The translations under genes and the position numbers were made by a program. A DNA stretch of 35,112 nucleotides from an uncultured Methanosarcinales archaeon. GTDB taxonomy: Archaea; Nanobdellota; Nanobdellia; Woesearchaeales; CAZZGN01. The notes under the pieces are model-generated. The model worked only from the letters and a program-made list of their open reading frames with translations, did not search any database and had not been told where the DNA came from. The stretch lies in NCBI GenBank assembly GCA_964654165.1, contig CAZZGN010000002.1, forward strand, positions 1 to 35,112, read 5' to 3'. Positions 8,679 to 34,752 of the stretch are shown piece after piece. The first letter of the stretch is position 1. The number at the start of each line of letters is the position of its first letter.

Positions 8679-8932
8679 TTAAGAAATTTAGAAAGAAACC
8701 TGTTGTTATTGAAGCAATAAAATATGATGGAACTATGGAATCTTTTAGTGAGATTCAAGAATGGTGTGATACAATTGAAGTAACTGCTTATAGAGATAAA
8801 AAGTTAAGAATACCTACACTTGAAGGTTTTCATGATGCGAGTATTGGTGATTGGATAATCAAAGGAGTTAAAGAAGAGTTTTATCCTTGTAAGCCAGATA
8901 TATTTGATATGACTTATGAAGAAGTAAAATGA
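8675..8932 (+). CDS. conserved small phage protein (KKPV...GDWI...YPCKPDIF type)
   Basis: 85 aa. The motif pattern KKPVVIEAIKY ... GDWIIKG ... FYPCKPDIFDMTYE is common in uncharacterised phage proteins. ATGA couples it to the upstream gene. Confidence 0.55.
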   Translation: MIKKFRKKPVVIEAIKYDGTMESFSEIQEWCDTIEVTAYRDKKLRIPTLEGFHDASIGDWIIKGVKEEFYPCKPDIFDMTYEEVK

Positions 8933-9081
8933 AACAAAAAAGATTTGAAAAAGTATTTGGAACAGATAAGTGGAGATGCTTAAAGTGTGGAAAATTAGTA
9001 AAAGAGATGGGTTGGTCAGGTCATTTAAGAAAACATAAAGAAAAGGTTCATCAAGTAAATAAGCATATTGACACTTACTAA
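8929..9081 (+). CDS. C2H2-like mini zinc-finger protein (50 aa)
   Basis: Hand-translated MKQKRFEKVFGTDKWRCLKCGKLVKEMGWSGHLRKHKEKVHQVNKHIDTY. The pattern is CxxC ... HxxxH. ATGA overlaps the upstream gene. Confidence 0.5.
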   Translation: MKQKRFEKVFGTDKWRCLKCGKLVKEMGWSGHLRKHKEKVHQVNKHIDTY

Positions 9082-9088
9082 AATAAAT

Positions 9089-9184
9089 ATGAAATGTAAA
9101 TATTGTTGGGAAGAAATGAGAGAAGGGGGTTTTAAAAAATGTAATAGAAGCCCTGTTGGTTTTTGTATTCCAGAAGGTTTTTAA
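9089..9184 (+). CDS. mini Cys-rich peptide (31 aa)
   Basis: Hand-translated MKCKYCWEEMREGGFKKCNRSPVGFCIPEGF. It has CxxC plus two further Cys and is very short. Confidence 0.3.
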   Translation: MKCKYCWEEMREGGFKKCNRSPVGFCIPEGF

Positions 9185-9310
9185 ATGAGGGCTAACGATA
9201 TTGATCATGTAGTGATTGATGTCTGGAGTAAGTCCGGAGAACACAAAAGAATAGATACAAAGAATTATAGTGAGGCTTGCAGGTGGTTAAGGCTTGCAAG
9301 TTTTGAATGA
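9185..9310 (+). CDS. small hypothetical protein (41 aa)
   Basis: Hand-translated MRANDIDHVVIDVWSKSGEHKRIDTKNYSEACRWLRLASFE. It starts immediately after the previous stop. Confidence 0.3.
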   Translation: MRANDIDHVVIDVWSKSGEHKRIDTKNYSEACRWLRLASFE

Positions 9311-9382
9311 AATATTATGTTCACCAAGCTGAAAATGGGTGTTGAAACTGATTGGTTTTTCATAGGGCCAATCGCCTCTTTT

Positions 9383-9452
9383 CCCCTGGCATTATACACA
9401 TTCGGGTGTTACGAAGGATCAGCGTCTTAACGCTTTTTTGCCAGGGTTTTTT
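9383..9452 (+). terminator. nested stem-loops each followed by T6 (terminator candidate for the upstream operon)
   Basis: The outer stem pairs CCCTGGCA (9384-9391) with TGCCAGGG (9439-9446) and is followed by TTTTTT. The inner hairpin AGCGT-CTTA-ACGCT (9421-9434) is also followed by TTTTTT. The large outer loop is atypical of simple intrinsic terminators. Confidence 0.4.
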
Positions 9453-9525
9453 ATAATCTTGAAAAAACAGATATCACATGGGGTTGATAACCATGAGTGT
9501 CGGGTGAGAATCCCTACGTCATATT

Positions 9526-9562
9526 CATGGGGATGGAAGTATGGATCATGGAAATCCATGGA
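9526..9562 (+). repeat. cluster of four direct ATGGA repeats within a CATGG/CCATG-rich stretch
   Basis: ATGGA occurs at 9533, 9541, 9548 and 9558. CATGG occurs at 9477, 9526, 9547, 9557 and 9715, and CCATG at 9491, 9556 and 9748. That is 8 pentamer hits in about 280 nt, where I estimate well under 1 by chance. Confidence 0.5.
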
Positions 9563-9812
9563 TTATATGTAAACCGGAAGACATAACTTGAGTATGTCTC
9601 AAAGCAATTTTGTGAAAATCAAAACAGTAACTTGCTGCTGCAGGGAACATAAGTGTAATCTGATGAAGATCTTTGCAGGTTCGAAATTGGCATTAAAAGC
9701 GTAGAGCATTGTGGCATGGCACAACAGTTAGGGGTTGCAAACCCTCACCATGTAATCGATATCGTAAAAGCCATCGAAAATCCTGCCCATCCCATTATAA
9801 TTAAAGAAGAGA

Positions 9813-9980
9813 ATGAAAAAATACAGATGCTTTAGATGTAAGAAAATATTTGTCACAAATAGGATATATTCAGCTAATTCCAATAGAAGAATTTGTGGTG
9901 ATTGTATAAAACCAAGAGATAATAAAAATCATAAATATATTCATCATTATAAGAAAGTAATGAATTTGATCAGTGACTAA
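9813..9980 (+). CDS. mini zinc-ribbon protein (55 aa)
   Basis: Hand-translated MKKYRCFRCKKIFVTNRIYSANSNRRICGDCIKPRDNKNHKYIHHYKKVMNLISD. It has CxxC ... CxxC pairs and lies immediately upstream of the large terminase. Confidence 0.45.
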   Translation: MKKYRCFRCKKIFVTNRIYSANSNRRICGDCIKPRDNKNHKYIHHYKKVMNLISD

Positions 9981-9986
9981 ACAAAG

Positions 9987-11264
9987 ATGGCGATACTCAA
10001 AATACCTTACAAACCACACAAAGGACAAAAGAAATTCCATCAAAGTAAAGCTAAATTCAGAGGATTATTAACAGGAGTAGCATACGGAAAAACCGCAGCA
10101 GGAGCAAACGAAATACTCAAGATGGCCGTGAAGTACCCTAAAAGTAAATTCTTAGTAATGGCCCCAAACAGCAAGATCCTTAATCATGCAACACTTCCTG
10201 AAATATATAAATGGGGAAGAAAACTAATTGTTTCTGAAACAAAATCTAAAAACACTATTCACATTCTTGGAGGAGGAACAATTATTTATCTTACTGCAGA
10301 TAACATGCGGCACGTTGACAGACTTAGAGGAATGACAATTGGAGGTTTCTGGCTTGATGAAGCAAGCTTATTTCTCAGAATGGTTTGGGCAGTTATTCTT
10401 GCAAGACTAAGATGTAATCATGGACCTCTTAAGGGAGTTATCACAACTACTCCTAAAGGATTTAATTGGCTGTACTGGTATTTTGTTAAAGGAACTAATC
10501 CAGTTAATAAAAAGAAATTACGTAATGCGGATAGTTATTGGTGGATAGGTGGGACAACGCATGATAACCCTTATACTCCTGAAGAATTTAAGCAGACTTT
10601 GATGGATGATTATACAGGAATATTTAAGAGACAAGAGATTTATGGTGAGTTCACAGGATTTGAAGGCCAGGTATATCCGCAGTTCAAACATAATACTCAT
10701 ATCTTGGAAAAGTATCCTGAACCTGGAAGGATTAGGGATGTTATTGCAGGAGTTGATTGGGGGTTCACTAATCCGATGGCAGGTTTGATTATAGGGTTTG
10801 ATAATGATGGGCGTTCTTATGTGCTTGAAGAGTTTTATAGGACTGGCCAGAAAGTAAGTAATTTGATTGATTGGTTGCATGAACAAAAAGAAAAGTATCC
10901 ACTTCTTAGAAGAGTTTATGCAGATCCTGCAGAGCCGCAGTTCATTATGGAAGTTAATGAAGCAAGGTATGAGTGTATTGCTGCAGATAATAGTGTCCTC
11001 CCTGGGATCAATAAAGTTTATGATTATGTTGAGATTGCAGGTGATGGACTTCCAAGGTTGTTTGTTATGAAACATTGCCAGGGAACTATTGATGAGTTCA
11101 GTACTTATCATTTTCCGGAAAGTAAGGATGGTGTTCCTAAGCAAGATAAGCCTTTGAAAGTTGATGATCACTGCATGGATGCGTTAAGATATGCTCTTAA
11201 ATCTCATGCTTATGGCAAAAAGTCTCACACAATTCTTAGTGATAAGGATGGTTCAATATTATAG
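9987..11264 (+). CDS. terL: terminase large subunit
   Basis: 425 aa. It has a Walker A-like GVAYGKTAAG and Walker B-like FWLDEAS. The RNase H-like nuclease motifs are GVDWGFTNPMAG, VYADPAEPQFI and DDHCMDALRYAL. Confidence 0.92.
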   Translation: MAILKIPYKPHKGQKKFHQSKAKFRGLLTGVAYGKTAAGANEILKMAVKYPKSKFLVMAPNSKILNHATLPEIYKWGRKLIVSETKSKNTIHILGGGTIIYLTADNMRHVDRLRGMTIGGFWLDEASLFLRMVWAVILARLRCNHGPLKGVITTTPKGFNWLYWYFVKGTNPVNKKKLRNADSYWWIGGTTHDNPYTPEEFKQTLMDDYTGIFKRQEIYGEFTGFEGQVYPQFKHNTHILEKYPEPGRIRDVIAGVDWGFTNPMAGLIIGFDNDGRSYVLEEFYRTGQKVSNLIDWLHEQKEKYPLLRRVYADPAEPQFIMEVNEARYECIAADNSVLPGINKVYDYVEIAGDGLPRLFVMKHCQGTIDEFSTYHFPESKDGVPKQDKPLKVDDHCMDALRYALKSHAYGKKSHTILSDKDGSIL

Positions 11265-14190: not shown

Positions 14191-15538
14191 TGTAATGTTT
14201 GTTAAAAAATCTGAAGGTAATGCAGCATATTCTTTTAATGAGGTTTTGGATGCTTTCCAGAGTATGGATGATATGGAGATGCTTCGTGAAGTTGTTGAGA
14301 ATGCTGAAGATAGAGTTTATGTTAGTTGGGCGAGTGTTGATGTTCGTGATCATGATGGTGAGAAAGTTCAGATAACAGATATAATTAATGATCAAGATAC
14401 TTTGCTTAAAAGGAATGGTCCTATTTCTGATACTCATACTAATGCTATTGTTGGCCAGACGCATGCATATAAAGTTCTTGAACATCCTGAAGCTAAGAAG
14501 ATGGGTGTTTTGCATTTGAACAGGATCTTTGATGATAATAAACAGGATGATCTTGTATGGAGCGAAACCCAATCTGGAAAAAGAAAAGGATCCAGTGTGG
14601 GAGGTTTTAATCTAAAGTTTAAATTTGAGAAGGATCCTGATACTGGTCTTATGACAAGGATCAGAGATGATTTTCACCAGTATGAGACTGCTAATGTTAA
14701 GGATCCTGCAAATCCTTTGGCACTTAATGAGTTTGTAAGTTTGGTTGCTAAGAGCAAAAATCCGATTAAGAAAATGCTTTCTAAATCAGAAATGGAGACT
14801 GTCGACGACATAATGGGCTATGTGGCAGGTAAGATAGCTAAATTAAAGGAAACTTTTGATAAAGGTTATGAAAAGCCAAAAAAAGAAGTTGGCAAAGAAG
14901 AAACAAAAAAGGCAAATTCGGACAAAAACGCCGATAATGTTATAAATAAGAAAACTAATGATTTAGATAATGTTGAAAAATCTAAATTTATGAGGGATAA
15001 AAAAATGGCTGAAGAAGTTAAAAAAACAAATGATGAACAGATTGCTTCTATTACTAAATCTGTGGGTGACTTAACAGATGTTGTTAAATCACTTGCTGAG
15101 AAAGTACAAAAGCAAGATGCAATAGTTGCAAAACAAGAAGATGAAAAACCTAAGGAAGAACCTAAAGAGGAACCTAAGGTAGAAAAACCTGAAGAGAAAA
15201 AGGTTGAAGAGACAAAGAAAGAAGAAGCAAAATCAGATATTCCTGGAGAAGCAGATGCTAAACAACCTGAACCTCCTTTAGCAGAAAACAGTAATCAAGA
15301 ATCAGTTTTCAAGGAAATGGTTTCAAAACAGAATACGATTATTGAAGGATTACAAAAGGATATGGCATCAGTTAAGAAATCAGCTGAAACCAGACCAGGA
15401 TTCCAAGAGACAGCGAAAGTCACAAAAGCAAGAAAAGAAAATGAAACTCTTGCAGTAGATATCGCAAAAGGAACTGTTAAGAAATCCTTCAGACACTGTC
15501 ATGATGTAAGCCGAGATATGGGCTTACTAATCGAGTAG
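14183..15538 (+). CDS. prohead serine protease (HK97/S78-like) fused to a K/E-rich scaffold-like C-terminal domain
   Basis: The N-terminal ~200 aa carry VDVRDHDGEKV, ISDTHTNAIVGQ and KGSSVGGF, matching the prohead-protease pattern. The C-terminal ~250 aa are low-complexity and coiled-coil-like (EEKPKEEPKEEPKVEKPEEKK). Confidence 0.8.
   Translation: MNDVMFVKKSEGNAAYSFNEVLDAFQSMDDMEMLREVVENAEDRVYVSWASVDVRDHDGEKVQITDIINDQDTLLKRNGPISDTHTNAIVGQTHAYKVLEHPEAKKMGVLHLNRIFDDNKQDDLVWSETQSGKRKGSSVGGFNLKFKFEKDPDTGLMTRIRDDFHQYETANVKDPANPLALNEFVSLVAKSKNPIKKMLSKSEMETVDDIMGYVAGKIAKLKETFDKGYEKPKKEVGKEETKKANSDKNADNVINKKTNDLDNVEKSKFMRDKKMAEEVKKTNDEQIASITKSVGDLTDVVKSLAEKVQKQDAIVAKQEDEKPKEEPKEEPKVEKPEEKKVEETKKEEAKSDIPGEADAKQPEPPLAENSNQESVFKEMVSKQNTIIEGLQKDMASVKKSAETRPGFQETAKVTKARKENETLAVDIAKGTVKKSFRHCHDVSRDMGLLIE
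14930..14952 (+). promoter_or_regulatory. intragenic exact copy of the promoter-like motif (GCCGATAATGTTATAAATAAGAA)
   Basis: It is identical over 23 nt to the copy at 26447-26469. It lies inside the protease-scaffold ORF, upstream of in-frame ATGs at 14990 and 15005. Confidence 0.5.
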
Positions 15539-16692: not shown

Positions 16693-17613
16693 ATGGGAGG
16701 ACAAGGATTAACAGGACCAAACCCTGCAGCACCACCTTATAATGCTGGCCCTTATTTTTGGGATCAACAAGTTACATTTTCGCAGGGTGTATCAGGAGTA
16801 AATACTAACAAAGATGTATGGTATGTTGATAGTGCAGGTTCTTCAGGTGAAGGAAGATCTTGGGATGATGCATTTGATACAATTGCAGCAGCACTTACTG
16901 CAGCAGGCGATGGAGATTATATCTTTATTGCACCAGGAGATTATGAGATTAGTGCGGCATTAGCAGTTACTAATGATAATCTCACAATAGTAGGACCAAA
17001 CAAAAGTTGCAATGATTACAGAGCGCTTATTTATTCTGATGGTGCAATGGATCTTATGACTGTTGATGCTAACCAAGTTAGCATTATAGGATTAGGATTT
17101 AGTGCAGCAGGAGGAAACGGAAACGGTATTGCTATTGCAGGAACAACAGCATCTTATAAGTTATATGTTGCAAATTGCAGATTTGATGGATGGGGTAATG
17201 ATGGATATGGGATCTTATGTGATGATACCCAAGATCAGCCAGATCTTGTTGTTGAAGATTGTTTGTTTAGAAGCTGGGCAACTGGTAGTATATACCACAA
17301 TGCAACAAGAGCAGTTTATCGAAGAAATATTATTCAGGTTGATGCAGCAGCTATTGGGATAAATTGTATTCCTACAGCTGGAAATAGGCCAGATTCATGG
17401 ATTTATGACAACCTAATATTGGGAAGCAATTCTACAGATATAGGAATACAGATTGCAGCTACAGAACCAACAGATGGAACACTTGCAGTATTTAATAATA
17501 CAATAGCAAATTGTAATTTGAATATTACACAGGACAAATCTGATGCAGGAGTTGTCAACAACGGTACTTACGGAGATGGAGCAACATTCTTCCAAGTAGA
17601 TCCTAACGCATAA
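16693..17613 (+). CDS. right-handed parallel beta-helix (pectate-lyase-like) protein
   Basis: 306 aa with a GGAGGA RBS 6 nt after the capsid stop. YVDSAGSSGEGRSWDDAFDTIAAALTAAGDGDYIFIAPGDY matches the usual N-terminal cap of beta-helix proteins. Repetitive N/G/I-rich rungs follow. Confidence 0.6.
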   Translation: MGGQGLTGPNPAAPPYNAGPYFWDQQVTFSQGVSGVNTNKDVWYVDSAGSSGEGRSWDDAFDTIAAALTAAGDGDYIFIAPGDYEISAALAVTNDNLTIVGPNKSCNDYRALIYSDGAMDLMTVDANQVSIIGLGFSAAGGNGNGIAIAGTTASYKLYVANCRFDGWGNDGYGILCDDTQDQPDLVVEDCLFRSWATGSIYHNATRAVYRRNIIQVDAAAIGINCIPTAGNRPDSWIYDNLILGSNSTDIGIQIAATEPTDGTLAVFNNTIANCNLNITQDKSDAGVVNNGTYGDGATFFQVDPNA

Positions 17614-17621
17614 ACAGGTGG

Positions 17622-17747
17622 ATGAAGATGAAAACTAAAAAATCTATTCATGAAAGAGATGCTGAACGTATGGCAGAGTTAGCAAAAACAGAGCATGCTA
17701 ATAAAGGCAAGTCTGGGAAAAAGAAAGCTAAGAAATCTGAAAAATAA
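17622..17747 (+). CDS. small basic protein (41 aa)
   Basis: Hand-translated MKMKTKKSIHERDAERMAELAKTEHANKGKSGKKKAKKSEK. It ends at a T-rich tract. Confidence 0.3.
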   Translation: MKMKTKKSIHERDAERMAELAKTEHANKGKSGKKKAKKSEK

Positions 17748-17763
17748 TTTTTTTATTTTTTTT
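17748..17763 (+). terminator. oligo-T tract (TTTTTTTATTTTTTTT)
   Basis: A T7-A-T8 run lies directly after the stop at 17747. It separates the capsid operon from the next unit. Confidence 0.5.
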
Positions 17764-17804
17764 AAATAATTTTTTAATATAAGATATTGGAGATGAGAAC
17801 TAAA

Positions 17805-18461
17805 ATGGGTAAATTCGTATGTATAACACAAACATTGCAGACAAATCAGTACATTGGACCTTCTGGGACAAAATATATGAGTATTAGAGGAAAACCTTTT
17901 GAGGTAACTAATAAGATAGATCTTAAATGGATCACTACAAAAACAAGAGTTAATCGTTTCAAGAAATGGAATATTTTTATGAAAGAAAAACAAGAATCTG
18001 ATGTTGATGTAGTTCTTTATGATAAGATGAAAAAGATTGGTCTTGATGATAAGGATGCAGAGATTGTTCGAGATATTTATATGCAGGAAAAGAATGTTAT
18101 TGATGCTGTTGAGCATAATTATAAATTGGACATTTCTATTTCAGAACCGGGTAGGCTTAAGATTAAGGCTTGGGTTAGTGAAGAGACAGATCCTCCTAAG
18201 CAACCAGATAAACCTGAACCAGAAACTGATGAAGAAAAGAATAAAAGGCTTCTTGAAGAAAATAAAGTTTTGAAAGAAGAAGGAATGTTATCTGATGAAC
18301 CTTTTGAAGAAACTCTTCCAGGGCATCAGGAAAATAATAAAGAAATATCTAATCAAGAAGTAAAGGTTGTAGGAAATCAGACAATACATAATACAGATCT
18401 TACTGGGGATAAGTATGTTCCAACTGAACCAGATAAAGATTTTATTGATTCAAAAAAATAA
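17805..18461 (+). CDS. hypothetical protein with acidic Pro/Glu-rich C-terminal half
   Basis: I prefer ATG 17805 (ATTGGAGATGA RBS 12 nt upstream) over the track start 17787. 218 aa with no recognisable motif. Confidence 0.5.
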   Translation: MGKFVCITQTLQTNQYIGPSGTKYMSIRGKPFEVTNKIDLKWITTKTRVNRFKKWNIFMKEKQESDVDVVLYDKMKKIGLDDKDAEIVRDIYMQEKNVIDAVEHNYKLDISISEPGRLKIKAWVSEETDPPKQPDKPEPETDEEKNKRLLEENKVLKEEGMLSDEPFEETLPGHQENNKEISNQEVKVVGNQTIHNTDLTGDKYVPTEPDKDFIDSKK

Positions 18462-18478
18462 GCAGGAGTTGAAAATTA

Positions 18479-18625
18479 ATGACAGCAGGAGATATAGAAG
18501 TTTTAGGACCTTTTGAACTTTCAGAAATTGATGCAGGACTAACAGGAAGTGTAGTTGTTGCAGATCTTATTGTTCCTTTAAGGCATGGAAGACAATGGGC
18601 TTTTGTCGTAGTTAAGGCAGCATAA
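18479..18625 (+). CDS. small hypothetical protein (48 aa)
   Basis: Hand-translated MTAGDIEVLGPFELSEIDAGLTGSVVVADLIVPLRHGRQWAFVVVKAA. An AGGAG RBS lies about 12 nt upstream. Confidence 0.35.
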   Translation: MTAGDIEVLGPFELSEIDAGLTGSVVVADLIVPLRHGRQWAFVVVKAA

Positions 18626-18637
18626 AAACAGGTTAAG

Positions 18638-21600
18638 ATGAAGTTAACAAAAATATTTTTTTTAATTTTATGTACAATTTTATTCTCACAAATAGTTAGT
18701 GCTGTTTATCCTTTTATTCCTACAGGAGATATTGATGGTGTAGGAATTCGTGGAATAAGAAATATGACTACAATTAATTCTTCTGAAGGTTTTTATGATG
18801 ATGGAGTTTTATTGACTCCAGGAAACTTGTCTTGGAACCAAGCTGTTGCAGATTCTTTATATATTGCCTTAATTGAAGAAGGAAATATTAATGGAAATAG
18901 TTCAGTTTATTGGTATACTGTGAAAGGTCCGATTAATAATTTTAAGAGCAGATGGTTCTTTCGTGATGGAAATTATCTTGATTATGATGAATCAAGACTT
19001 AATGATACAATTGATTTAAGAGCTTCAGGAAACACTTCTTTTAATCAATCAACTACAAACAAACTTTATGCAACACATGATGCAGTTAGAAATAATTTTA
19101 CAGAAGCAGAAGCTTATACTAATCTTACAAATGAGACTAACACAAATTACACTAATGCATTGAATAAAACTACTGCAGACAGAATTTCTTCTATAACTCC
19201 CACGAATTTAACTGAAGAAGATGTGGATGTATTTAACAATAATTTGGGTTACAAAAAAGAAGCTTATAACACTTCCACTCAGATTGATGGTGTTGTTGAA
19301 GGTCTTGGTTTCAGAAAGAATGCTTACAATGAGTCAGATCTTAATGCAACACAATTAAAAGAAGATAATGGAAAACTTACAATAATTGTTTCATGGTTAA
19401 GAAGTTTATTTTATACTAAAACAGAAGTTGATACAAGGATTGTAGATAACATAACTGAGTCAGAAGCGTATACAATGACTTTGATTAATGAGAATTTTAC
19501 TGTTGCTGTTAATACTGCAGAGGCTTATACTAATCTTACAAATATTTCTAATACAGATTATACTAATTGGCTTAATACCACTCAACAACTTTATATTGAT
19601 GCCAAAGATGTTGCTTTTAATCTTTCAATGAAATCTTATGTTGACTATCTAAATCAAAGCATGAATGATTGGGTTAGTTCAGTTTATCTTGCAGGAGTCA
19701 CAATTCATACTTTAATTACAGATAATCGTACTGAGTCAGAAGCTTATATTATGAATTTAATGAAAATTAACCAAACAATTACTGATGGAAATATCACTCG
19801 TGTTGAAAACCAAGTTGATGATATGATTAACCGTTCAGGAGATATTTTCAATGCTAAAGATACGCAATATAATTTTTCATTCTTAAACGAATCTCTTCCA
19901 ATTGGACTCAATAATGCAGTCTTGAAATTCAGAACTAATGAATCATTGTCAACTATGGTCTTATCAGTCGGAAATGATGGAGATTCACAGATTAATATAT
20001 TCTCTGCTGGAACAAATGCGACCAGAGGTGTAGCAGGTTCATCAGTCGATAATGCCACAGGTATATCCGCAGTAAACGCAGATTTAAGGTTTATAGTGCA
20101 AGAAGTTAATAGAAGCTTCATATTTCAACAATGGAATGGTACAGAATTAGTAGATAGTATGATAATTCAAGAAGATGGTACTGTTTTATTAAATAGTGAT
20201 TTATTTTTTGAAGATAGAAATAAAACTATTAGAACTGTTCCAGTAGATGGCGGTGCAGCAATGTTATTTCAATCTGAAGAAATTTTAGAAGCAGGAGGAT
20301 TCCCTTTCATTTGGGTTGCAAGAAGTTCAGACGGTGATCAAATTGTGCCATCTTGGTTACAGAATGGAAATAATAATTCTTATAGTGGAAATATGAACTC
20401 ATTTGGTACAGTACCTCAAACATGGGTAACTTTCTCTGGTATGGGAGATGAGGGAGGTATTGACTTTTTATTTAATGTTAGTAATTATTTAAACTATTGT
20501 GATTGGTTACAAACAAATTTAAGTTTAATACCTGATGGATGTCAATATGCTGCAGATACAACTGGTAGAGGAGTTCCTTTATTATTTGGTGGAGATTTAG
20601 AAGTTCATAGAACTGCAACAATTCATGAATTACTCAGATTATTTGATGGTATCTTAGCTACGGGTGATGCAGATTTTGTAATGGAAGGTAACCAGTTTGA
20701 TGTTTTTAATGGATCAGTACATGTTTCTACTCCTGTTATTTATGAGGCAGGATTTAGTGAGGGTGATGCTCTTACAAAACTATCTGGAACTTTCCCAGGA
20801 ATACTTTCTCCTTTTGCAAATCAACAATCAGATTTTGGTGATTGGGTAACTACTTCAAGCGGTTTTTGTGAAGATAGTCCTTGTGCAGCTGCTAATGGTG
20901 GTGGTTCTGGAGTTGTTGAGATGATGGCTAATTTTAACACTATTGATTCAGAAAATTGTACGCTTAATTTCACTTACAGTAATGATGATCTTAGAGATGC
21001 TCCTGAAGAAATAGTTGTTACAATGAATAATGGTAATGCAAGTGGCGAAATTGAAGTTTATAGTGATGCTACTAAAGATGTAATATTACAAGATGTTTCT
21101 ATTATTTTAGATAATGGTTTTGCTGATTTGTCAAGTGTAAATCTAAGTTATACTTGTTATTCATCTAAGGATAACCGTTTGTGTTATGTTGATAGTGTGA
21201 ATGTTCAATGTTTTGCTACAACTACAACTTTGAGTAATCAGTCAGGATTTGATTCTAATTACTGTACCAGTGATGGAGGCCTTGATGTTAATGATCAGTG
21301 TAATACAGGTATCGTTTATGATGCTGCTACAGATACACATTTAATGAAGGGTACTTGGAATGTTACCGGAACTGTTGTTGGTGGGGTTACAGGAACAGGA
21401 ACTTCTAACACTGTTTCGAAATGGACTGGTACAACTTCTCAAGGTAACTCTAATATTTTGGATGATGGTTCGTTGGTGACTATTAATTCTGATACAACTA
21501 TTGTGGGGGATCTTGTGGATTATATTAAAAATGCTTTTAATAAGAGTAGTGAAGTGGATATTTCCCAAACTTCAGGATATCTTAGTAATTCTGCAGGATG

Positions 21601-22036
21601 GATTAATAGATCAAGTGATACTTATATCACAAAGAATGTTTTGATTGGAAAATCAACTGCTGAGAACTTTCCTTTTTTTGTGACAAACAGTTCAAGACCT
21701 CAGTATGTTTTTGAATCTACAAGTACAAATGATGTATGTATTTTGTTAAGACCTAATGGTGGTTTTTCAGATCAGAAATGGATGTGTGTTGATGATGATC
21801 AAAATAATAGGATGATGTTTGGGTATGGAAGTGTTACAGGTGCACAGAGAACTTTTGATTATACTGAAGATGAAGTTAATTTTAATAGTCATGATCTTGT
21901 TGAGACTGGCAATATTAATATGACTTCTGGAAAAAAGATTTGTTTGGATGGAAATTCTTGTAATTCTCAACAATATTATAATGGGACTTGTCTTATACAA
22001 AATGTTTCTGGTACAGTGGTATCAATTTGTCCATAG
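18638..22036 (+). CDS. large secreted, sequon-rich repeat protein (adhesin or fibre-like)
   Basis: 1132 aa. It has a Sec-type signal peptide, MKLTKIFFLILCTILFSQIVSA|VY. I counted about 50 N-x-S/T sequons by eye. The motif TE(A/S)EAY..L.N recurs, and the C-terminal third is Cys-rich. Confidence 0.7.
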   Translation: MKLTKIFFLILCTILFSQIVSAVYPFIPTGDIDGVGIRGIRNMTTINSSEGFYDDGVLLTPGNLSWNQAVADSLYIALIEEGNINGNSSVYWYTVKGPINNFKSRWFFRDGNYLDYDESRLNDTIDLRASGNTSFNQSTTNKLYATHDAVRNNFTEAEAYTNLTNETNTNYTNALNKTTADRISSITPTNLTEEDVDVFNNNLGYKKEAYNTSTQIDGVVEGLGFRKNAYNESDLNATQLKEDNGKLTIIVSWLRSLFYTKTEVDTRIVDNITESEAYTMTLINENFTVAVNTAEAYTNLTNISNTDYTNWLNTTQQLYIDAKDVAFNLSMKSYVDYLNQSMNDWVSSVYLAGVTIHTLITDNRTESEAYIMNLMKINQTITDGNITRVENQVDDMINRSGDIFNAKDTQYNFSFLNESLPIGLNNAVLKFRTNESLSTMVLSVGNDGDSQINIFSAGTNATRGVAGSSVDNATGISAVNADLRFIVQEVNRSFIFQQWNGTELVDSMIIQEDGTVLLNSDLFFEDRNKTIRTVPVDGGAAMLFQSEEILEAGGFPFIWVARSSDGDQIVPSWLQNGNNNSYSGNMNSFGTVPQTWVTFSGMGDEGGIDFLFNVSNYLNYCDWLQTNLSLIPDGCQYAADTTGRGVPLLFGGDLEVHRTATIHELLRLFDGILATGDADFVMEGNQFDVFNGSVHVSTPVIYEAGFSEGDALTKLSGTFPGILSPFANQQSDFGDWVTTSSGFCEDSPCAAANGGGSGVVEMMANFNTIDSENCTLNFTYSNDDLRDAPEEIVVTMNNGNASGEIEVYSDATKDVILQDVSIILDNGFADLSSVNLSYTCYSSKDNRLCYVDSVNVQCFATTTTLSNQSGFDSNYCTSDGGLDVNDQCNTGIVYDAATDTHLMKGTWNVTGTVVGGVTGTGTSNTVSKWTGTTSQGNSNILDDGSLVTINSDTTIVGDLVDYIKNAFNKSSEVDISQTSGYLSNSAGWINRSSDTYITKNVLIGKSTAENFPFFVTNSSRPQYVFESTSTNDVCILLRPNGGFSDQKWMCVDDDQNNRMMFGYGSVTGAQRTFDYTEDEVNFNSHDLVETGNINMTSGKKICLDGNSCNSQQYYNGTCLIQNVSGTVVSICP
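19112..19543 (+). repeat. intragenic direct repeat (exact 21-mer GCTTATACTAATCTTACAAAT twice)
   Basis: The copies lie at 19112-19132 and 19523-19543, which is 411 nt or 137 codons apart. Both encode AYTNLTN. Degenerate further copies lie near 19457 and 19733. Confidence 0.8.
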
Positions 22037-22044
22037 GTGAAATA

Positions 22045-24762
22045 ATGAAATGGCAACAAGTAGCAATAATTCTTGTAACCTTACTAATCAGTGGGGGTGT
22101 TGTTACTTATACAGATCTTTTTGGAGCATTATTTCAATTATCAGGAATGGATTATAGTTTTACTGGAGATCAATCTTGCGGTACTGAATGTGAAAGTTAT
22201 ATTAATGTAACTTCTTCTTACTGGCGTGTTTGTTTTGAACATTCAAAAGATACTCAAAATATTTATATCCCTGGAAAAGTTGTTCTTAATAAGACAACGA
22301 TTGCAGAAGCACCAAACACGGTGTTGTTTAAGAAAAGTACTCGTGGAAGAACTCTATGGGTCAATATGAATAATGTAAATAATGTTGTGACAACAGAACC
22401 AGAAGTTGATGTTGACTGGCTTGTTCCAACAGTTAAAAGATATAGTACAAATAAAGATTCTATTGGTTACTGGAGACCTCTTAAAGATGGCGATTGTTGG
22501 GAACGCGGGGAGATCAATAAAATAAAACTTATAGGTCACAAACCAGAAGGATTAACAGTTAAATGGAGTTTTTTAATGGAAGACAAAATTGATATTGATC
22601 CAGTATGGACAGGAACAAATCTTTATAATAACATTGTATTTTATGCACCTCTTGATGGGGTATATAAAGATTATTATGGTCTTGGATATCCTACTGTTTT
22701 AAATTCTGTTTTCAATAAATCAGTTCTTTATGAAGGATCATATTTTAATCAAGATGGAAGTTTAGAATATACAGATACAGGACCAATGAATACTCAAGAT
22801 GATGTTTCCATTAAGGCTTGGATTAATCTTGCAGAAAGGCAAGCTACTAATATGGGTATTGCAGGAAAAATATCAAGTTCACCATCATACTCTTATGGTA
22901 TGTTAAAAGATTCAGGTCATGATATTAGATGTAGGTGGACAACTGGTGCAGGAAATCAGAATTGTATTGCACCTGGAACATCAGAACCAGTAGTTGGTAA
23001 TTGGGAGATGTGGGTATGTGTTTTTAATGAAACATCTAATTTAGTTATGATTTACAAGAATGGGATACAAGTAAAAAATTGTTCAACAGCGACAAGAACT
23101 ATCACTGGGGGAAATTTCTTTATTGGTTCCATGGATACATCAAACAGGTTTAATGGTACTATTGATGAAGTATATGTGTTTAATGTTTCATTGTCTAAAG
23201 AAGAAATTGGAGATTTATATTATAGAACTTTGAATGGTTCAAGTTTTGGAAAAGATTTAACTTATTATATGAATAATTCTGGGAATGATGCAAATACTGG
23301 ATTGACTCCAGATGCACCATTAAAATCTCAGGGAGAAGTTAATAATCGTCGTTACGTTCAAGGATATAATATTGTATATAATCGTGGTGATGAATGGAGA
23401 TTAACAACTGATGATTATTTTGATCCTCAAGATGGAGATAACTATACTAATACAACTTATGGAGTTTATGGTACTGGACCTAAACCCGTCTTTTATGGAA
23501 GTTATGAAGCAAATGGTGCAGGAAACTGGACTCTGACAGGAGATGCTAACATATACAAATATGTAGGTACCTTAACTACTGATGCAGGAAATATAATATT
23601 TAATAATCAACCAGGACTTAATGGTAGAAAAAACAATACTTTTGCAGGTCTTGATACGAATCTTGATTTCTGGTATAACTCAACTGGAAACAATGTGAAA
23701 TTATATTATGATGTTGGTAATCCTGGAAATGTGTTTGATGATATTGAAATTGCTGTTGAGGTAGGGATATTTTTTGCACTTGATAAAAAGTATATCAAAA
23801 TAAGTAATCATAGTTATAAATATAGTGGTCAACATGGTATAAATTTTGCAGAATCAAGTCCGCATTATGTATATGATTGTAATTTCTTTTATATTGGTGG
23901 TGCTTACCAAACAGGAGATACAAGGTATGGTAATTGTTATCAGAGTCTTAGAACTGTTGATAGAGTTCATGTAAAAGGAAATAATGCTTCTTGGTGTTAT
24001 GATGCAGGATTTAGTCCTCAAAGTCCAAGTGCTCCAGGAGACCATAATATTACAAATGTGTTATATGAATATAATATTGCAGATCATTGTATTTATGGAA
24101 TTGAATATTTTAGTTCAAGTGCTGGAAGTATAACTGAAAATATTACTTTTGCACATAATACTCTTGTTGATAGTGTTCAGGTTTTTGGATGGAGTCATAG
24201 ATTAGGTCAAGCAATAAGGGCTTCTGCAAGTCCTTTACTTACTTCAAATTTTGTAATTAGAGATAACATATTTGATAATTCAACTAATTGGACTGTGGGT
24301 GTAGGTTATAATGCTGATTGGAATGGAGAACCACCATTATTATTAAACAATTTTTGGAGCAGAAATCCTGTTACTACTGTGTTTTATAATTATACTAAAT
24401 ATTCAGATCTTACAGCATTTAGGGTAGATTATCCAGATCAAACTATTGATAGTATTGAACAAGATATAAATTTTGTTAATAGAAACTTGTATGATTATAG
24501 GCCAGTAAATAGTAGTTCTGCTTGTGTTAATGGGAGTGATGGAAAAACTATTGGTGCTTTACCTTGTGCAAGTTCTTCATGTACTTATCCTGGAAGTGGG
24601 GATCATACTTATTTTGGATTAGATCATTGTGTTATTCCAAGTGTTGTGGATCATTTAAAGAATAATGTTTTTGTTGTTGGTCCTGGAAGTTTAACAGGAT
24701 GGAAATTTATAATGAATTATACTTATGCAAACATAAATAATCAAGTGAAGGTGACAAGCTAA
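22045..24762 (+). CDS. membrane-anchored LamG (concanavalin-like) plus beta-helix domain protein
   Basis: I prefer ATG 22045 over the track start 21988. The N-terminal hydrophobic anchor is MKWQQVAIILVTLLISGGVV. The LamG signature is ...WEMWVCVFN...IYKNG...FFIGS...FNGTIDEVYVFNVSLSKEEIGDLY. A beta-helix-like C-terminal half follows NNSGNDANTGLTPDAPLKS. Confidence 0.68.
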   Translation: MKWQQVAIILVTLLISGGVVTYTDLFGALFQLSGMDYSFTGDQSCGTECESYINVTSSYWRVCFEHSKDTQNIYIPGKVVLNKTTIAEAPNTVLFKKSTRGRTLWVNMNNVNNVVTTEPEVDVDWLVPTVKRYSTNKDSIGYWRPLKDGDCWERGEINKIKLIGHKPEGLTVKWSFLMEDKIDIDPVWTGTNLYNNIVFYAPLDGVYKDYYGLGYPTVLNSVFNKSVLYEGSYFNQDGSLEYTDTGPMNTQDDVSIKAWINLAERQATNMGIAGKISSSPSYSYGMLKDSGHDIRCRWTTGAGNQNCIAPGTSEPVVGNWEMWVCVFNETSNLVMIYKNGIQVKNCSTATRTITGGNFFIGSMDTSNRFNGTIDEVYVFNVSLSKEEIGDLYYRTLNGSSFGKDLTYYMNNSGNDANTGLTPDAPLKSQGEVNNRRYVQGYNIVYNRGDEWRLTTDDYFDPQDGDNYTNTTYGVYGTGPKPVFYGSYEANGAGNWTLTGDANIYKYVGTLTTDAGNIIFNNQPGLNGRKNNTFAGLDTNLDFWYNSTGNNVKLYYDVGNPGNVFDDIEIAVEVGIFFALDKKYIKISNHSYKYSGQHGINFAESSPHYVYDCNFFYIGGAYQTGDTRYGNCYQSLRTVDRVHVKGNNASWCYDAGFSPQSPSAPGDHNITNVLYEYNIADHCIYGIEYFSSSAGSITENITFAHNTLVDSVQVFGWSHRLGQAIRASASPLLTSNFVIRDNIFDNSTNWTVGVGYNADWNGEPPLLLNNFWSRNPVTTVFYNYTKYSDLTAFRVDYPDQTIDSIEQDINFVNRNLYDYRPVNSSSACVNGSDGKTIGALPCASSSCTYPGSGDHTYFGLDHCVIPSVVDHLKNNVFVVGPGSLTGWKFIMNYTYANINNQVKVTS

Positions 24763-25454
24763 TGAATCGAAGAAACTTTATTAAACTGGCTGGACTTGGA
24801 GCAATTGCTATTGCAACTCCTGGATGCGGAAGATACATAGTTGAAACAGTTAGGGATCAGTTAAGAAAAGATTACGAATTTTTGTTCAGTCTGGGTAAGC
24901 ATATTGAAGTTTGTGAGATGAGAATAGGTCAAAGGTCTGCAAAGGGTTGTGGAATAGTTGTTGATGGTATGTATCGGACAATGGAACATATCGGAAGGGT
25001 CAGAGTTAATCAGATGTTTCCAATTTTTGAAAATGTAGATATCTATTTGAAGGGTGTAAAAGCTGAACTTATTGGAATGGAAAAAAGTAATGATACTGCT
25101 CTTTATGAGCTTCCTAAATATAAAACTATTCCTGGAGGAAGGGTTGCACTTCACTTTGAAGAGTTTCCTCTGGATAGAAGTGATGATTATCATCTTGGTC
25201 AGCTCGTGGGATGTGTTGGAAGTCCAGCAATGGATGGAATAAGGGTAATGCAGGGACGAATCACTGATCTTGATGGTTGGAGCGGTAAGAAAGGTAATGT
25301 TGGTACTGACATGAATTATATTGGGGGAGATTCAGCGGGTGCTATGGTTGGTTTAGAAGATAGAGTTCTTCTTGGACAGAATAGTTTTAACCTGGCAGAC
25401 AAGCAAGGATACTTTATTAAACAGGATGAATGGGAAAAGTTATATAGAAATTAA
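24762..25454 (+). CDS. trypsin-like serine peptidase with twin-arginine signal and lipobox-like cysteine
   Basis: 230 aa. The N-terminus MNRRNFIKLAGLGAIAIATPGCG has the Tat RRxFxK motif, an h-region and a Cys. The candidate triad is His76 (TMEHIG), Asp111 (NDTALYEL) and Ser191 (GGDSAGA). A TAATG overlap couples it to the upstream gene. Confidence 0.68.
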   Translation: MNRRNFIKLAGLGAIAIATPGCGRYIVETVRDQLRKDYEFLFSLGKHIEVCEMRIGQRSAKGCGIVVDGMYRTMEHIGRVRVNQMFPIFENVDIYLKGVKAELIGMEKSNDTALYELPKYKTIPGGRVALHFEEFPLDRSDDYHLGQLVGCVGSPAMDGIRVMQGRITDLDGWSGKKGNVGTDMNYIGGDSAGAMVGLEDRVLLGQNSFNLADKQGYFIKQDEWEKLYRN

Positions 25455-25476
25455 TCGCAAATGTTATAAATAAGAA
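25455..25476 (+). promoter_or_regulatory. recurrent promoter-like motif TCGCAAATGTTATAAATAAGAA
   Basis: It starts 1 nt after the upstream stop. TTATAAAT starts 32 nt upstream of ATG 25496, and no SD is present. Confidence 0.55.
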
Positions 25477-34515: not shown

Positions 34516-34536
34516 TATAAAATGGAGGTTATCATA

Positions 34537-34752
34537 ATGGATCAAAGCGAAAGAGGAAAGTTAAATATTGAGGATTTGAAGAAGTTAGGTAAGAGTGCAG
34601 GTATTGCTTTTGGTGGTGCGGCACTTGTTATTGCAGGAGAGATTGTTCTTCCAGGACTAAAGGATATTATTGATGTTAGTTATTTGGATGCAGTATTTTT
34701 GGCAGCTTCTTCTTGGTGTGTTAATTTCGGAATGAAATTATGGAAAAAATAG
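34537..34752 (+). CDS. two-TM small membrane protein (holin-like)
   Basis: I prefer ATG 34537 (GGAGG 8 nt upstream) over 34522. The hydrophobic segments are AGIAFGGAALVIAGEIVL and AVFLAASSWCVNFGM, and the C-terminus is basic (KLWKK). Confidence 0.45.
   Translation: MDQSERGKLNIEDLKKLGKSAGIAFGGAALVIAGEIVLPGLKDIIDVSYLDAVFLAASSWCVNFGMKLWKK

Follow-up and report, generated by a model that had tools for sequence, protein, structure and literature searches.

The window, i.e. the whole stretch of 35,112 nucleotides analysed here, derives from an archaeal-type tailed virus in which three late genes located between the capsid and neck genes encode products apparently built for export, an arrangement that is unusual among tailed viruses. 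We tentatively interpret the region 18638-25454 (rough probability 0.45) as a late-expressed, envelope-directed module that could act in virus release and/or in the masking of receptors. The two large proteins of 1132 and 905 amino acids (aa) encoded there are probably not fibres assembled in the cytoplasm. These genes may be relevant to an unsolved problem, namely how archaeal tailed viruses act on the cell surface and escape through it; according to PMC10791045, neither the egress machinery of these viruses nor any viral enzyme that degrades the S-layer is known.

Boundaries and gene content of the block

In a search against 50,697 phage records, matches to the capsid and portal proteins of the window were confined to haloarchaeal and Methanofastidiosa viruses. 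A relative whose capsid protein is 68% identical to that of the window falls in a Pacearchaeota bin, and one member of the anchor-domain family described below is carried by an 'archaeon' metagenome-assembled genome. BRE/TATA-like motifs at 25-30 nt from start codons and oligo-T tracts in the window fit an archaeal setting as well. While the identity of the host is only hinted at, it is probably archaeal, which the sequence-only reading had not recognised, and N-glycosylation, the S-layer and BRE/TATA-type promoters therefore form the relevant frame. The following features could be placed in and around the block:

17747-17762, + strand: oligo-T tract (T7-A-T8, read directly), 3' of a small ORF at 17623-17747
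17805-18461, + strand: core head-module gene, 218 aa from ATG 17805, with homologues beside the capsid gene in relatives
18479-18625, + strand: 48-aa ORF ending in ...GRQWAFVVVKAA, with likeness to the small head proteins of relatives
18638-22036, + strand: candidate secreted fibre-like glycoprotein of 1132 aa (sequons, Cys, signal)
22045-24762, + strand: candidate signal-anchored lectin-domain glycoprotein of 905 aa (sequons, Cys, LamG)
24762-25454, + strand: trypsin-like serine protease of 230 aa with a twin-arginine N-terminus (H76, D111, S191 in GDSAG)
25457-25472, + strand: recurrent BRE/TATA-like promoter motif GCAAATGTTATAAATA, 25 nt 5' of the ATG of the adaptor gene (25496)

The sequence-only reading had proposed a self-contained operon at 17766-25454 that interrupts the usual gene order from capsid to adaptor. 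An interruption is present, with a capsid-to-adaptor interval of 8.8 kb in the window versus 1.3-2.8 kb in relatives L007, L033, L034 and L042, but the inserted part is 18638-25454, given that 17805-18461 is a core gene and that the 48-aa ORF looks like the small head proteins which relatives encode. The operon is thus not self-contained, as its first genes are core head genes and not cargo. Homologues of 17805-18461 adjoin the capsid gene in L005, L006, L007, L009, L033, L034, L036, L041 and L042, and the gene was rejected as cargo because it is present in every relative examined. Its product (alternative ATG at 17793) carries the motif M(G)KFxCITQT...GPSG..Y..G.PF.V and an acidic/Lys-rich C-terminus, has no signal and gave no Pfam or PHROG match. 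The 48-aa ORF, judged by eye only, is similar to the C-terminal ends (G.W.A..R) of small proteins of 85-113 aa from the head region of relatives. Close relatives differ in whether and where they carry the block, and no holin adjoins it.

Of the two proposed boundaries, the upstream oligo-T tract exists, one base away from the coordinates given earlier, and is a candidate archaeal-type terminator; an AT-rich, TATA-like sequence (about 17760-17780) follows directly. The downstream motif is indeed recurrent, with six sites at three or fewer mismatches versus 1.67 expected and none of 100 shuffles reaching six. It lies 25-30 nt 5' of the ATGs at 11318, 13777 and 25496, is not conserved in relatives, and at 25457-25472 is a candidate start of the next transcription unit. 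No copy of it occurs in the block. Transcription of 18638-25454 probably begins in the AT-rich sequence 3' of the oligo-T tract and takes in both core head genes, which would make expression of the block probably late and lytic.

The three large ORFs were found as described, as were their 8-nt gap (TAG 22034-22036 to ATG 22045) and TAATG overlap (24759-24764). ATG 22045 was taken as the start of the 905-aa protein because homologues begin with MKWQ... and AGGTGA stands upstream.

Properties of the three export-type proteins

The domains and signals recognised in the three products are the following:

18638-18703, + strand: Sec-type signal peptide, residues 1-22 of the 1132-aa protein (n-region MKLTK, h-region IFFLILCTILFSQIV, c-region SA before V)
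18704-20197, + strand: Cys-free, sequon-laden 'stalk', residues 23-520, with 34 sequons
20222-21244, + strand: central domain, residues 529-869, 38% identical to residues 232-571 of P0002
22060-22140, + strand: hydrophobic Gly/Ser/Thr-rich N-terminal segment, residues 6-32 of the 905-aa protein, ending in a conserved L-S/T-G
22147-22614, + strand: conserved membrane-proximal domain, residues 35-190, from alignment of homologues
22756-23208, + strand: LamG/concanavalin-A-like lectin domain, residues 238-388 (Pfam PF13385)
23263-24576, + strand: C-terminal region, residues 407-844, related to P0005 and to part of P0034
24762-24830, + strand: Tat-type signal, residues 1-23 of the protease (MNRRNFIK, short h-region LAGLGAIAIA, then TPG-C22)

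All three N-termini are of export type. Across the window, a Kyte-Doolittle 19-residue hydrophobicity of at least 1.6 is reached by an N-terminal segment in the 1132- and 905-aa proteins alone. The earlier impression that the three products look exported gains support from sequon and Cys signatures, which are independent of the N-termini and confined to signal-bearing proteins. At related loci, all 15 signal-bearing giant proteins are enriched in sequons (z 3.0 to 9.7) versus none of nine signal-less giant neighbours (z -3.6 to +1.3). The forward sequon exceeds the reverse motif 1.4- to 2.9-fold in the eight signal-bearing proteins counted, an excess absent from the six signal-less ones counted. 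Cys counts are high and even in the signal-bearing giant proteins (14-43 in most, versus 0-2 in most signal-less ones), and each of the window's two large proteins has 16, outside the signal. In contrast, the structural module and proteins of the cultured relative HVTV-1 show none of the sequon, Cys and export traits of the window proteins. These signatures suggest that the three products are exported and that the two large ones are glycosylated.

The 1132-aa protein contains 51 NxS/T sequons versus 22.1 expected (z=7.0). Its N-terminus, MKLTKIFFLILCTILFSQIVSA followed by VYP, agrees in sequence and hydrophobicity with the Sec-type signal and VSA-V cleavage site predicted earlier; among seven Sec-signal proteins compared, this protein and P0002 included, position -1 is small and position -3 small or aliphatic. 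A motif in stalk residues 235-263 recurs in the Sec-signal protein L044_630. No Pfam, PHROG, PDB, NCBIfam or PADLOC match was obtained. The sole homologue found among 5.8 billion proteins is P0002, a signal-peptide protein of 1645 aa. The element that encodes it is 26 kb long, bears an integrase and gave no match to a capsid, terminase or portal.

The 905-aa protein has 24 sequons versus 13.6 expected (z=3.2). The hydrophobic anchor claimed for it corresponds to residues 6-32, which could be a signal anchor or, alternatively, a long signal that is cleaved off; AlphaFold2 placed helices at residues 3-17 and 22-29 (pLDDT 84-92). The adjoining domain (pLDDT mostly 75-94) has conserved Cys at 45, 49, 63 and 151 and the motifs RSRTLWVNL, VDWLVP and GDCWERG. 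Homologues match this N-terminal region only, at 45-56% identity, and the first 190 residues define a family of about 30 proteins, which recurs in related viruses. All contigs on which the family was found are virus-sized and none is cell-sized, so that the domain is not a captured host adhesin. It is conserved independently of virion proteins: between viruses the N-domain is 46-56% identical, versus 24-26% for tube proteins and 34% for terminases, with capsid proteins not detectably related. Across viruses its gene is located at three different points of the late operon, among them directly after tape-measure or Dit genes (L021, L023, L025) and after the tail tip (L007, L028), the usual location of genes for receptor-binding proteins.

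The LamG domain of the 905-aa protein was readily confirmed by Pfam (65 bits against a cut-off of 27.6; 9.7e-18), and Foldseek related its fold to toxin receptor-binding lectin domains, pentraxins and phage LamG proteins (E about 1e-8 to 1e-9). LamG is common in phage structural proteins. The beta-helix also attributed to this protein could not be shown in it; the match belongs to the neighbouring 306-aa protein (16693-17613). The C-terminal region has no Pfam match and an AlphaFold2 pLDDT of about 30. P0034, to part of which it is related, is a Clostridia SLH-domain surface protein, and a Cys-containing module in the last ~60 residues recurs in L005_1610 and P0015. No catalytic domain was recognised in the 1132- or 905-aa protein, which, like the frequency of LamG in phage structural proteins and the absence of an adjoining holin, speaks against an envelope-directed module.

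For the 230-aa protein, whose own Pfam match reaches only E=0.043, the trypsin-like assignment is supported transitively by its family of 57 distant homologues. Across 41 family members the catalytic residues H76 and S191 are invariant and D111 nearly so, and 38 of the 41 match Pfam Trypsin_2. The twin-arginine motif and lipobox-like site noted earlier (MNRRNFIK...ATPGC) are present; Tat models score just below threshold, however (Pfam TAT_signal 15.5 bits, cut-off 22.7; TIGR01409 15.1, cut-off 16.7), and TPGC is a non-canonical lipobox. The RR pair is conserved across the family, most members of which lack the Cys, while P0038 has a canonical LAGC. Low-GC viral contigs again carry the family, directly 5' of the terminase; as its genomic location thus differs in other viruses, the three genes do not form an obligate unit.

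Proposed role and alternative explanations

The account that follows, of the timing, partners, target and biological role of the three products, is what we infer for an envelope-directed module. The 1132-aa protein would exit through Sec with cleavage of its signal peptide, and the 905-aa protein also through Sec, held by its Gly/Ser/Thr-rich signal anchor followed by the 155-residue disulfide-bonded domain. For the protease the route would be Tat, and it may end up as a lipoprotein. Once on the external side of the membrane, both large proteins would be N-glycosylated by the host oligosaccharyltransferase and would become disulfide-bonded. They could then assemble into an array of fibre and lectin domains that is anchored in the membrane and attaches, via LamG and the variable C-terminal domains, to surface glycans of the host itself, while the protease may cut surface or S-layer proteins. 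Late in infection, the glycosylated envelope would be loosened for release, and receptors could also be masked or destroyed, with the effect that progeny are not lost on debris or already infected cells.

A less favoured explanation, which we regard as unlikely, makes the two large proteins host-recognition or decoration fibres of the virion. Their hydrophobic N-termini would then be no export signals but, for instance, buried anchors or membrane-inserting elements at entry; otherwise the proteins would be exported, glycosylated and disulfide-bonded, joining cytoplasmically assembled particles at or after lysis. Both the location of the genes inside the structural late operon and the fibre-like stalk motifs of the Sec-signal proteins point this way and are caveats to an envelope module. 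The same holds in favour of fibres for the family members placed after tape-measure/Dit or tail-tip genes, for the fact that all relatives of sufficient length have one or more exported-type genes, and for the conserved N-terminus joined to hypervariable lectin, CBM or beta-helix C-termini, a layout typical for receptor-binding proteins. For the 1132-aa central domain, the single homologue lies in a non-tailed, membrane-protein-rich element, a setting in which such proteins commonly serve as particle spikes, and HFTV1 is an example of an archaeal tailed virus whose head bears glycan-binding appendages. Against fibres, the sequon and Cys signature, missing from signal-less giant proteins of the same blocks, argues for folding outside the cytoplasm. 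The 905-aa N-domain is not a virion anchor in our interpretation, because it is far better conserved than the tube, terminase and capsid proteins, with no equally conserved virion partner found, and occurs in three gene places. Moreover, the window already encodes a full signal-less tail-tip and fibre set, including the tail-tip LamG domain claimed earlier (Pfam 1.3e-23), as well as a candidate head fibre that lacks a signal and has a conserved N-terminal anchor of its own. Cleavable Sec signals are not known from virion proteins of tailed viruses.

Still less probable is that the block has no role in release and is host-benefit or lysogenic-conversion cargo, its adhesins and protease altering cell attachment, or serves superinfection exclusion. 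With a DPANN symbiont as host, altered sticking to partner cells or surfaces would be relevant. In a study of groundwater viromes, ConA/LamG proteins and glycosyltransferases encoded by CPR/DPANN viruses were proposed to help symbionts adhere (PMC11310336). The Pacearchaeota-binned relative, the moron-like variation in presence and position of the block, and the glycosyltransferase-methyltransferase fusions beside the blocks of larger relatives are in line with cargo. This contrasts with the lack of any integrase or lysogeny gene among ten early proteins scanned, the absence of PADLOC hits for the module, its apparent co-transcription with head genes without the recurrent promoter motif, and the restriction of the anchor domain to virus-sized contigs. 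It is very improbable that the host is a low-GC bacterium, e.g. one of the Bacteroidota, in which the proteins would be morons of an ordinary kind (secreted or lipoprotein) or fibres, with sequons enriched because of structural Asn/Thr-rich repeats instead of glycosylation. An assembly named Oceanihabitans sediminis (Bacteroidota) contains family member P0014, and the marker genes of the more distant carriers are not specifically archaeal, their tube and terminase also matching bacterial phages. The capsid and portal of the window, however, match archaeal viruses only, and the Pacearchaeota bin, the 'archaeon' genome and the BRE/TATA geometry of the promoter motif likewise speak against a bacterium. 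So does the sequon enrichment, which is directional and tracks signal presence across many different domain types.

Identity of the virus and layout of the block

The window is an uncultured tailed virus in which the HK97-type head and siphovirus-type tail module are complete: it encodes a terminase, portal, protease/scaffold, HK97-type capsid, adaptor, tube, tape measure and Dit-like protein, and its tail tip carries LamG. Among 50,697 phage records, the capsid protein matched only Haloarcula viruses of the HCTV-1/HVTV-1 group (~33% identity) and one Methanofastidiosa virus, and the portal matched Haloarcula viruses only. A first capsid search of genome contigs gave no match, and a second returned only a 7.3-kb contig binned as Candidatus Pacearchaeota, the capsid of which is 68% identical. 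The GC content of the window is ~33%, and no tRNAs or Rfam families were found in it. Based on the capsid and portal matches, the Pacearchaeota-binned relative and the promoter geometry, leaders and T-tracts described below, the window was therefore treated as an archaeal virus; a DPANN host is a weak lead. Contrary to an archaeal host, an assembly that bears the name Oceanihabitans sediminis includes one member of the 905-aa family, and the tube and terminase of more distant carriers are not specifically archaeal; a bacterial host is considered very improbable. The early region encodes two ParB-N-domain proteins and one C5 cytosine methyltransferase (1052-2623, 5216-5821 and 5818-6729), and a scan of ten early proteins found no integrase. 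A stretch of ~1 kb upstream of the terminase (8932-9987) is devoid of long ORFs and holds only several CxxC mini-ORFs; no tRNA or Rfam match was found in it, and its fold energy is unremarkable (z=-0.55).

The three ORFs of the block, encoding proteins of 1132, 905 and 230 aa, are present with the 8-nt gap (TAG at 22034-22036, AGGTGA, ATG at 22045) and the TAATG overlap (24759-24764) noted in the sequence-only reading. Both proposed boundary elements were also found, an oligo-T tract upstream (17747-17762) and the recurrent promoter motif GCAAATGTTATAAATA downstream (25457-25472). This motif has six sites at three or fewer mismatches against 1.67 expected, a count reached in 0 of 100 shuffles, and the start codons at 11318, 13777 and 25496 each have a copy 25-30 nt upstream. 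Its geometry matches that of an archaeal BRE/TATA promoter serving genes with a short leader or none. GGAGG or GGTGA stands ahead of internal genes, and T-tracts stand ahead of the promoters. Conservation of the motif in relatives was tested and not found. One further copy (14933-14948) is situated inside the gene of the 451-aa protease/scaffold, followed by in-frame ATGs at 14990 and 15005, and might give rise to a nested transcript covering the C-terminal scaffold part.

The unit as a whole is preceded by the oligo-T tract and an AT-rich region, both of which it shares with core head genes, and no terminator was found at the 3' end of the block. Homologues of the first gene, 17805-18461 (MGKFVCITQT...GPSG.KY...G.PF.V), adjoin the capsid gene in every related contig examined (L005, L006, L007, L009, L033, L034, L036, L041 and L042). 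On this synteny the gene is assigned to the core and not to the cargo, and the description of a self-contained foreign operon was abandoned because its first gene is core in all relatives. A 48-aa ORF resembles the ends of small head-region proteins of the relatives. The variable part and the domains of its two large products are listed below.

Features of the variable block and its two large products
18638-25454, forward strand: variable cargo
1132-aa protein, N-terminal 22 residues: predicted signal peptide
1132-aa protein, residues 23-520: stalk, Cys-free, with 34 of the 51 sequons (N-x-S/T)
1132-aa protein, residues 529-869: central domain, 38% identical to part of the homologue P0002
1132-aa protein, distal part: carries the 16 Cys of the mature chain, starting within the central domain
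905-aa protein, residues 35-190: conserved domain (N-domain) with four conserved Cys
905-aa protein, residues 238-388: LamG, Pfam PF13385, 9.7e-18, 65.2 bits against a cut-off of 27.6

Export-type features of the three products

The N-terminus of the 1132-aa protein reads MKLTK / IFFLILCTILFSQIV / S-A|V, with a Kyte-Doolittle 19-residue hydrophobicity of 2.28 at residues 6-24. This fits a class I Sec signal peptide, of which a short, positively charged n-region, a hydrophobic h-region (7 to ~15 residues) and a small residue at both -3 and -1 ahead of the cleavage site are expected. The sole homologue of the 1132-aa protein among 5.8 billion proteins, P0002, itself has a signal peptide; no match was present in INPHARED. 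The stalk motifs are common to Sec-signal proteins of the clade of the window. PDB sequence searches with the 1132-aa and 905-aa proteins found nothing, and neither the 1132-aa protein nor the N-domain matched a Pfam, PHROG or NCBIfam family. For all three block proteins, PHROGs, NCBIfam and PADLOC returned nothing except two sub-threshold NCBIfam matches. P0002 is encoded by a 26-kb, integrase-bearing element full of membrane proteins, in which no capsid, terminase or portal match was found and for which classification attempts yielded the integrase only. Besides the integrase, which is of the tyrosine type, this element (L001-L004; ENA ERZ23498360/61, Logan SRR10072862/63) encodes a P-loop protein, a series of membrane/secreted proteins that includes P0002, and a 119-aa protein in which two segments are hydrophobic; it may be either a plasmid or a non-tailed archaeal virus.

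In the 905-aa protein, K2 is followed by a Gly/Ser/Thr-rich hydrophobic stretch (residues 6-32, Kyte-Doolittle 1.87), which is kept in ~30 homologues and ends in L-S/T-G. The hydrophobic anchor ascribed to this protein is thus borne out as a probable signal anchor or long signal peptide. The LamG domain was likewise confirmed, with a profile match above threshold and Foldseek E-values of ~1e-8 to 1e-9 to lectin-type domains. The beta-helix was not: residues 400-905 matched no Pfam or NCBIfam family and gave an AlphaFold2 pLDDT of ~30. In the AlphaFold2 model (31 sequences) only the N-domain and LamG were modelled well, and Foldseek searches of it against PDB and BFVD were dominated by LamG matches, with nothing on the N-domain. 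Beta_helix or NosD domains do occur in the C-termini of the family members P0016 and P0018, and within the window the beta-helix label fits the neighbouring signal-less 306-aa protein. The latter (16693-17613) is a parallel beta-helix (TIGR03805, E=6.6e-9). Its first ~30 residues (MGxGLTGxNPAAPPY..GPY.WD) recur in L005 (155 aa) and L041 (464 aa), with a different sequence beyond them, and it appears to be a head fibre/decoration protein with a swappable distal domain.

For the 230-aa protein, a twin-arginine motif and a lipobox-like site had been proposed. N-R-R-N-F-I-K fits the Tat motif (S/T-R-R-x-F-L-K) and the RR is conserved in the family, while the Tat profile scores stay just below threshold (Pfam TAT_signal 15.5 against 22.7; TIGR01409 15.1 against 16.7). 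The lipobox was not borne out, since in A-T-P-G-C22 the Pro at -2 and the Thr at -3 depart from the canonical [LVI][ASTVI][GAS]-C at the signal end, where Cys is absent in most relatives; one relative has LAGC. A word-based search found no homologue, and an exhaustive HMMER search 57. In an alignment of 41 sequences H76 and S191 are invariant and D111 is conserved in at least 90%, the serine motif of the window protein being GDSAG. Pfam Trypsin_2 was matched by 38 of these 41 homologues (best 3.6e-16), the own match of the 230-aa protein being weak (E=0.043, 15 bits against a cut-off of 27.6). The triad, the GDSG-type motif, the N-terminal RR and the Trypsin_2 matches of the family are the grounds on which this protein is classed, as had been proposed, as a probable trypsin-like serine protease (clan PA) with a Tat-type N-terminus. 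AlphaFold2 run without an alignment gave an unusable fold (pLDDT 29.6).

Across the whole window, a strongly hydrophobic N-terminal segment was found in the 1132-aa and 905-aa proteins only; the remaining hydrophobic segments lie in the tube and tape-measure proteins and in two small ones. In all seven Sec-type proteins compared (the 1132-aa protein, five from related viral loci, and P0002) the signal ends with a small residue at -1, and position -3 is either small or aliphatic. Compared with 3000 shuffles of each protein, N-x-S/T sequons are in excess in the 1132-aa protein (51 against 22.1 expected, z=7.0) and the 905-aa protein (24 against 13.6, z=3.2), and are not enriched in the capsid, portal, adaptor, tube and tape measure. 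Of the large signal-bearing proteins of related loci, 15 of 15 are sequon-enriched (z from 3.0 to 9.7), and of the signal-less giant proteins of the same blocks, 0 of 9 (z from -3.6 to +1.3). Among the proteins counted, only those of the signal-bearing class have more forward sequons than reverse motifs (1.4- to 2.9-fold), which argues against a mere Asn/Thr-rich structural repeat. Cys residues number 14-43 in most signal-bearing giants and 0-2 in most signal-less ones; outside the signal, the 1132-aa and 905-aa proteins each have an even number, 16. As a control, the structural module of the cultured relative HVTV-1 contains no large protein with the signal, sequon or Cys traits. In archaea, N-glycosylation and disulfide formation take place outside the cytoplasm. 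Taken together, the three independent signatures point to true export of the large block proteins, and a sequon excess confined to exported proteins is what N-glycosylated archaeal surface proteins would show.

Signal-less giants of these blocks (L015 6411-10004 and 14128-19245; L010 13514-18439; L014 13825-23639; L013 12362-14176) start with LTSDSYIKK-type repeats, are sequon-poor and, for the most part, low in Cys as well. As probable genuine fibres assembled in the cytoplasm, they served as an internal control. Just upstream of the exported-protein blocks of the larger relatives L010 (2626-5013), L014 (6555-9020) and L015 (1-1736), a fusion of ~800 aa combining glycosyltransferase and methyltransferase hints at virus-directed glycan modification.

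Distribution of the block and of its protein families

Between flanking core genes that are conserved, large signal-bearing genes are present in some relatives and absent from others. The capsid-to-adaptor interval is free of large genes in L007, L033, L034 and L042, where it measures 1.3-2.8 kb; it reaches 5.1 kb (L041), 8.3 kb (L005) and 8.8 kb (the window) elsewhere. Differing signal-bearing proteins are encoded just downstream of the capsid in L005, L041, L036 and L044. Presence or absence at one locus with conserved flanks is the pattern by which a moron is recognized. The protease family is found elsewhere, in viral contigs of 29-31% GC, immediately upstream of terminase/portal genes; the three block genes are therefore not an obligate unit. 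In L016-L019 (IMG/VR, 29-31% GC) the protease gene also adjoins a metallophosphatase-like gene, a placement recalling the position of the lambda lysis cassette.

The N-terminal 190 residues of the 905-aa protein define a family of ~30 proteins, all on contigs of 92 kb or less, whose C-termini vary (LamG, CBM96, MAM, beta-helix/NosD, DNRLRE). The gene occupies three positions. Head and neck genes flank it in the window, L010/L011, L012/L013/L020 and L015, and apparently also in L014, L022, L024 and L026, whose flanking genes were identified in part. It follows the tape measure or Dit directly in L021, L023 and L025, and it comes after the tail tip in L007/L027 and L028. Immediately upstream of it, a Sec-signal protein is encoded in the window, L010 and L024. 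Two further candidates, L005_1610 and L042_196, showed no relation to the family in hhalign. As in a virion fibre, the gene is encoded in the morphogenesis operon at a fibre position; the co-divergence with a docking virion component expected of such a fibre was not observed. The N-domain is 46-56% identical between loci, against 24-26% for the tube proteins and 34% for the terminases, the capsid proteins being undetectably related, and no virion partner conserved as well as the N-domain was found among the compared loci.

Proposed role, alternatives and known systems

With a probability of roughly 0.45, and so tentatively, the block is read as a late module aimed at the cell envelope, with a role in release, in receptor masking or in both. 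The export, glycosylation, timing, partners and target of this module are what we infer. A Sec-exported fibre-like glycoprotein and a signal-anchored lectin protein would be displayed on the outer face of the membrane, possibly complexed via the conserved membrane-proximal domain, and would bind the surface glycans of the host itself, and the Tat-exported protease would cut surface or S-layer proteins.

An envelope module rather than fibres had been favoured from the sequence alone, and the export-type features support this part, but some weight stays with the particle. That the products are virion fibres, which either reach it by an extracytoplasmic route or have N-termini that do not work as signals, is rather unlikely: the operon context, the tail-module positions, the fibre motifs and an architecture like that of receptor-binding proteins speak for such fibres, and docking on the particle is opposed by the conservation of the anchor domain independently of virion proteins, by the varying gene position and by the complete signal-less set of tail-tip, fibre and head-fibre proteins already in the window. 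A specific form of this, considered improbable, is that the exported glycoproteins are the host-recognition fibres of the particle, matured outside the cytoplasm and joining heads or tails at or after lysis, with the protease aiding release or maturation. Folding, disulfide bonding and N-glycosylation would then occur outside the cytoplasm, before attachment to the cytoplasmically assembled heads and tails. Cargo for adhesion or lysogenic conversion is also quite unlikely; the LamG genes of CPR/DPANN viruses were proposed to act in adhesion (PMC11310336), but no lysogeny genes were seen among the early proteins scanned, the context is late, and the anchor family is confined to virus-sized contigs.

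Several known systems resemble the preferred envelope module. Phage morons such as lambda Lom and Bor place exported envelope proteins in the late region, and receptor-blocking lipoproteins (T5 Llp, Cor proteins) block receptors, protect progeny and exclude superinfection. Common to these and the block are signal-bearing products among structural genes, variable presence among relatives and, as proposed for the block, an action at the surface instead of in the particle, with receptor blocking. The block proteins differ in being sequon-rich, multi-domain lectin/fibre proteins of 900-1100 aa, whereas morons encode lipoproteins of 8-25 kDa or porin-like proteins; its genes do not each have a separate promoter/terminator pair, its setting is archaeal (S-layer, N-glycosylation), and its anchor-domain family, found only on virus-sized contigs, is common to different capsid lineages. 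Sec-signal and signal-anchor-release (SAR) endolysins (P1 Lyz, phage 21 R21, fOg44 Lys44) are also late viral proteins that reach the wall compartment through the host Sec pathway. The N-terminal helix of the 905-aa family is rich in Gly, Ala, Ser and Thr as SAR domains are, its variable distal domains would parallel the cell-wall-binding domains of endolysins, and the protease family lies in other viruses just upstream of the terminase, the classic lysis-cassette position. Unlike endolysins, the large block proteins have no recognized wall-degrading catalytic domain, are 3-10 times larger and have no adjacent holin, and the target would be a glycoprotein S-layer, not murein.

Spike or terminal-fibre glycoproteins of non-tailed archaeal viruses, e.g. 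spike VP4 of the pleolipovirus HRPV-1, likewise combine a signal peptide with N-glycosylation-type sequence features and face the host surface, and the only protein related to the central domain of the 1132-aa protein is encoded by an integrase-bearing element that is non-tailed and rich in membrane proteins. However, viruses of the HRPV-1 type acquire a membrane or assemble at it, which lets exported proteins enter the particle, while the virus of the window has an HK97-type head and a siphovirus-type tail module. By function, the block comes closest to morons for exported envelope proteins and to Sec/SAR-exported lysins; by structure, it comes closest to the spike glycoproteins of non-tailed archaeal viruses.

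Haloferax tailed virus 1, an archaeal tailed virus with appendage genes in the head region, contacts the S-layer by glycan-binding/modifying head turrets, and the accessible part of PMC12494034 describes no export signals for turret proteins; as a turret counterpart in the window, the 306-aa beta-helix protein fits better than the block. CPR/DPANN viruses, assigned to ultrasmall symbionts, carry ConA/LamG 'cell-adhesion' genes and glycosyltransferases for which a surface role was proposed (PMC11310336). LamG-bearing proteins and glycosyltransferases are thus shared, whereas signal peptides, sequon/Cys signatures, an anchor domain, a Tat protease and placement in the structural operon are not described in the accessible part of that source.

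The players in the egress of archaeal tailed viruses are uncharacterized, and no viral S-layer-degrading enzyme has been identified, according to a 2024 review (PMC10791045). For the way in which such viruses breach an S-layer or leave the cell that it encloses, the block and its relatives supply testable candidates: a signal-anchored protein family with swappable glycan-binding heads, present on virus-sized contigs only, and a family of Tat-signal serine proteases. The combination of N-terminal signal, sequon excess and Cys count gives a simple sequence test to separate exported from cytoplasmic giants in uncultured archaeal viruses. If the block proteins were true virion parts, the assembly of tailed viruses would gain an extracytoplasmic, secretory-pathway step. 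After the last tail genes (34522-34752), a 76-aa protein with one transmembrane segment (residues 28-46) is a holin-like candidate and is relevant to any lysis model.
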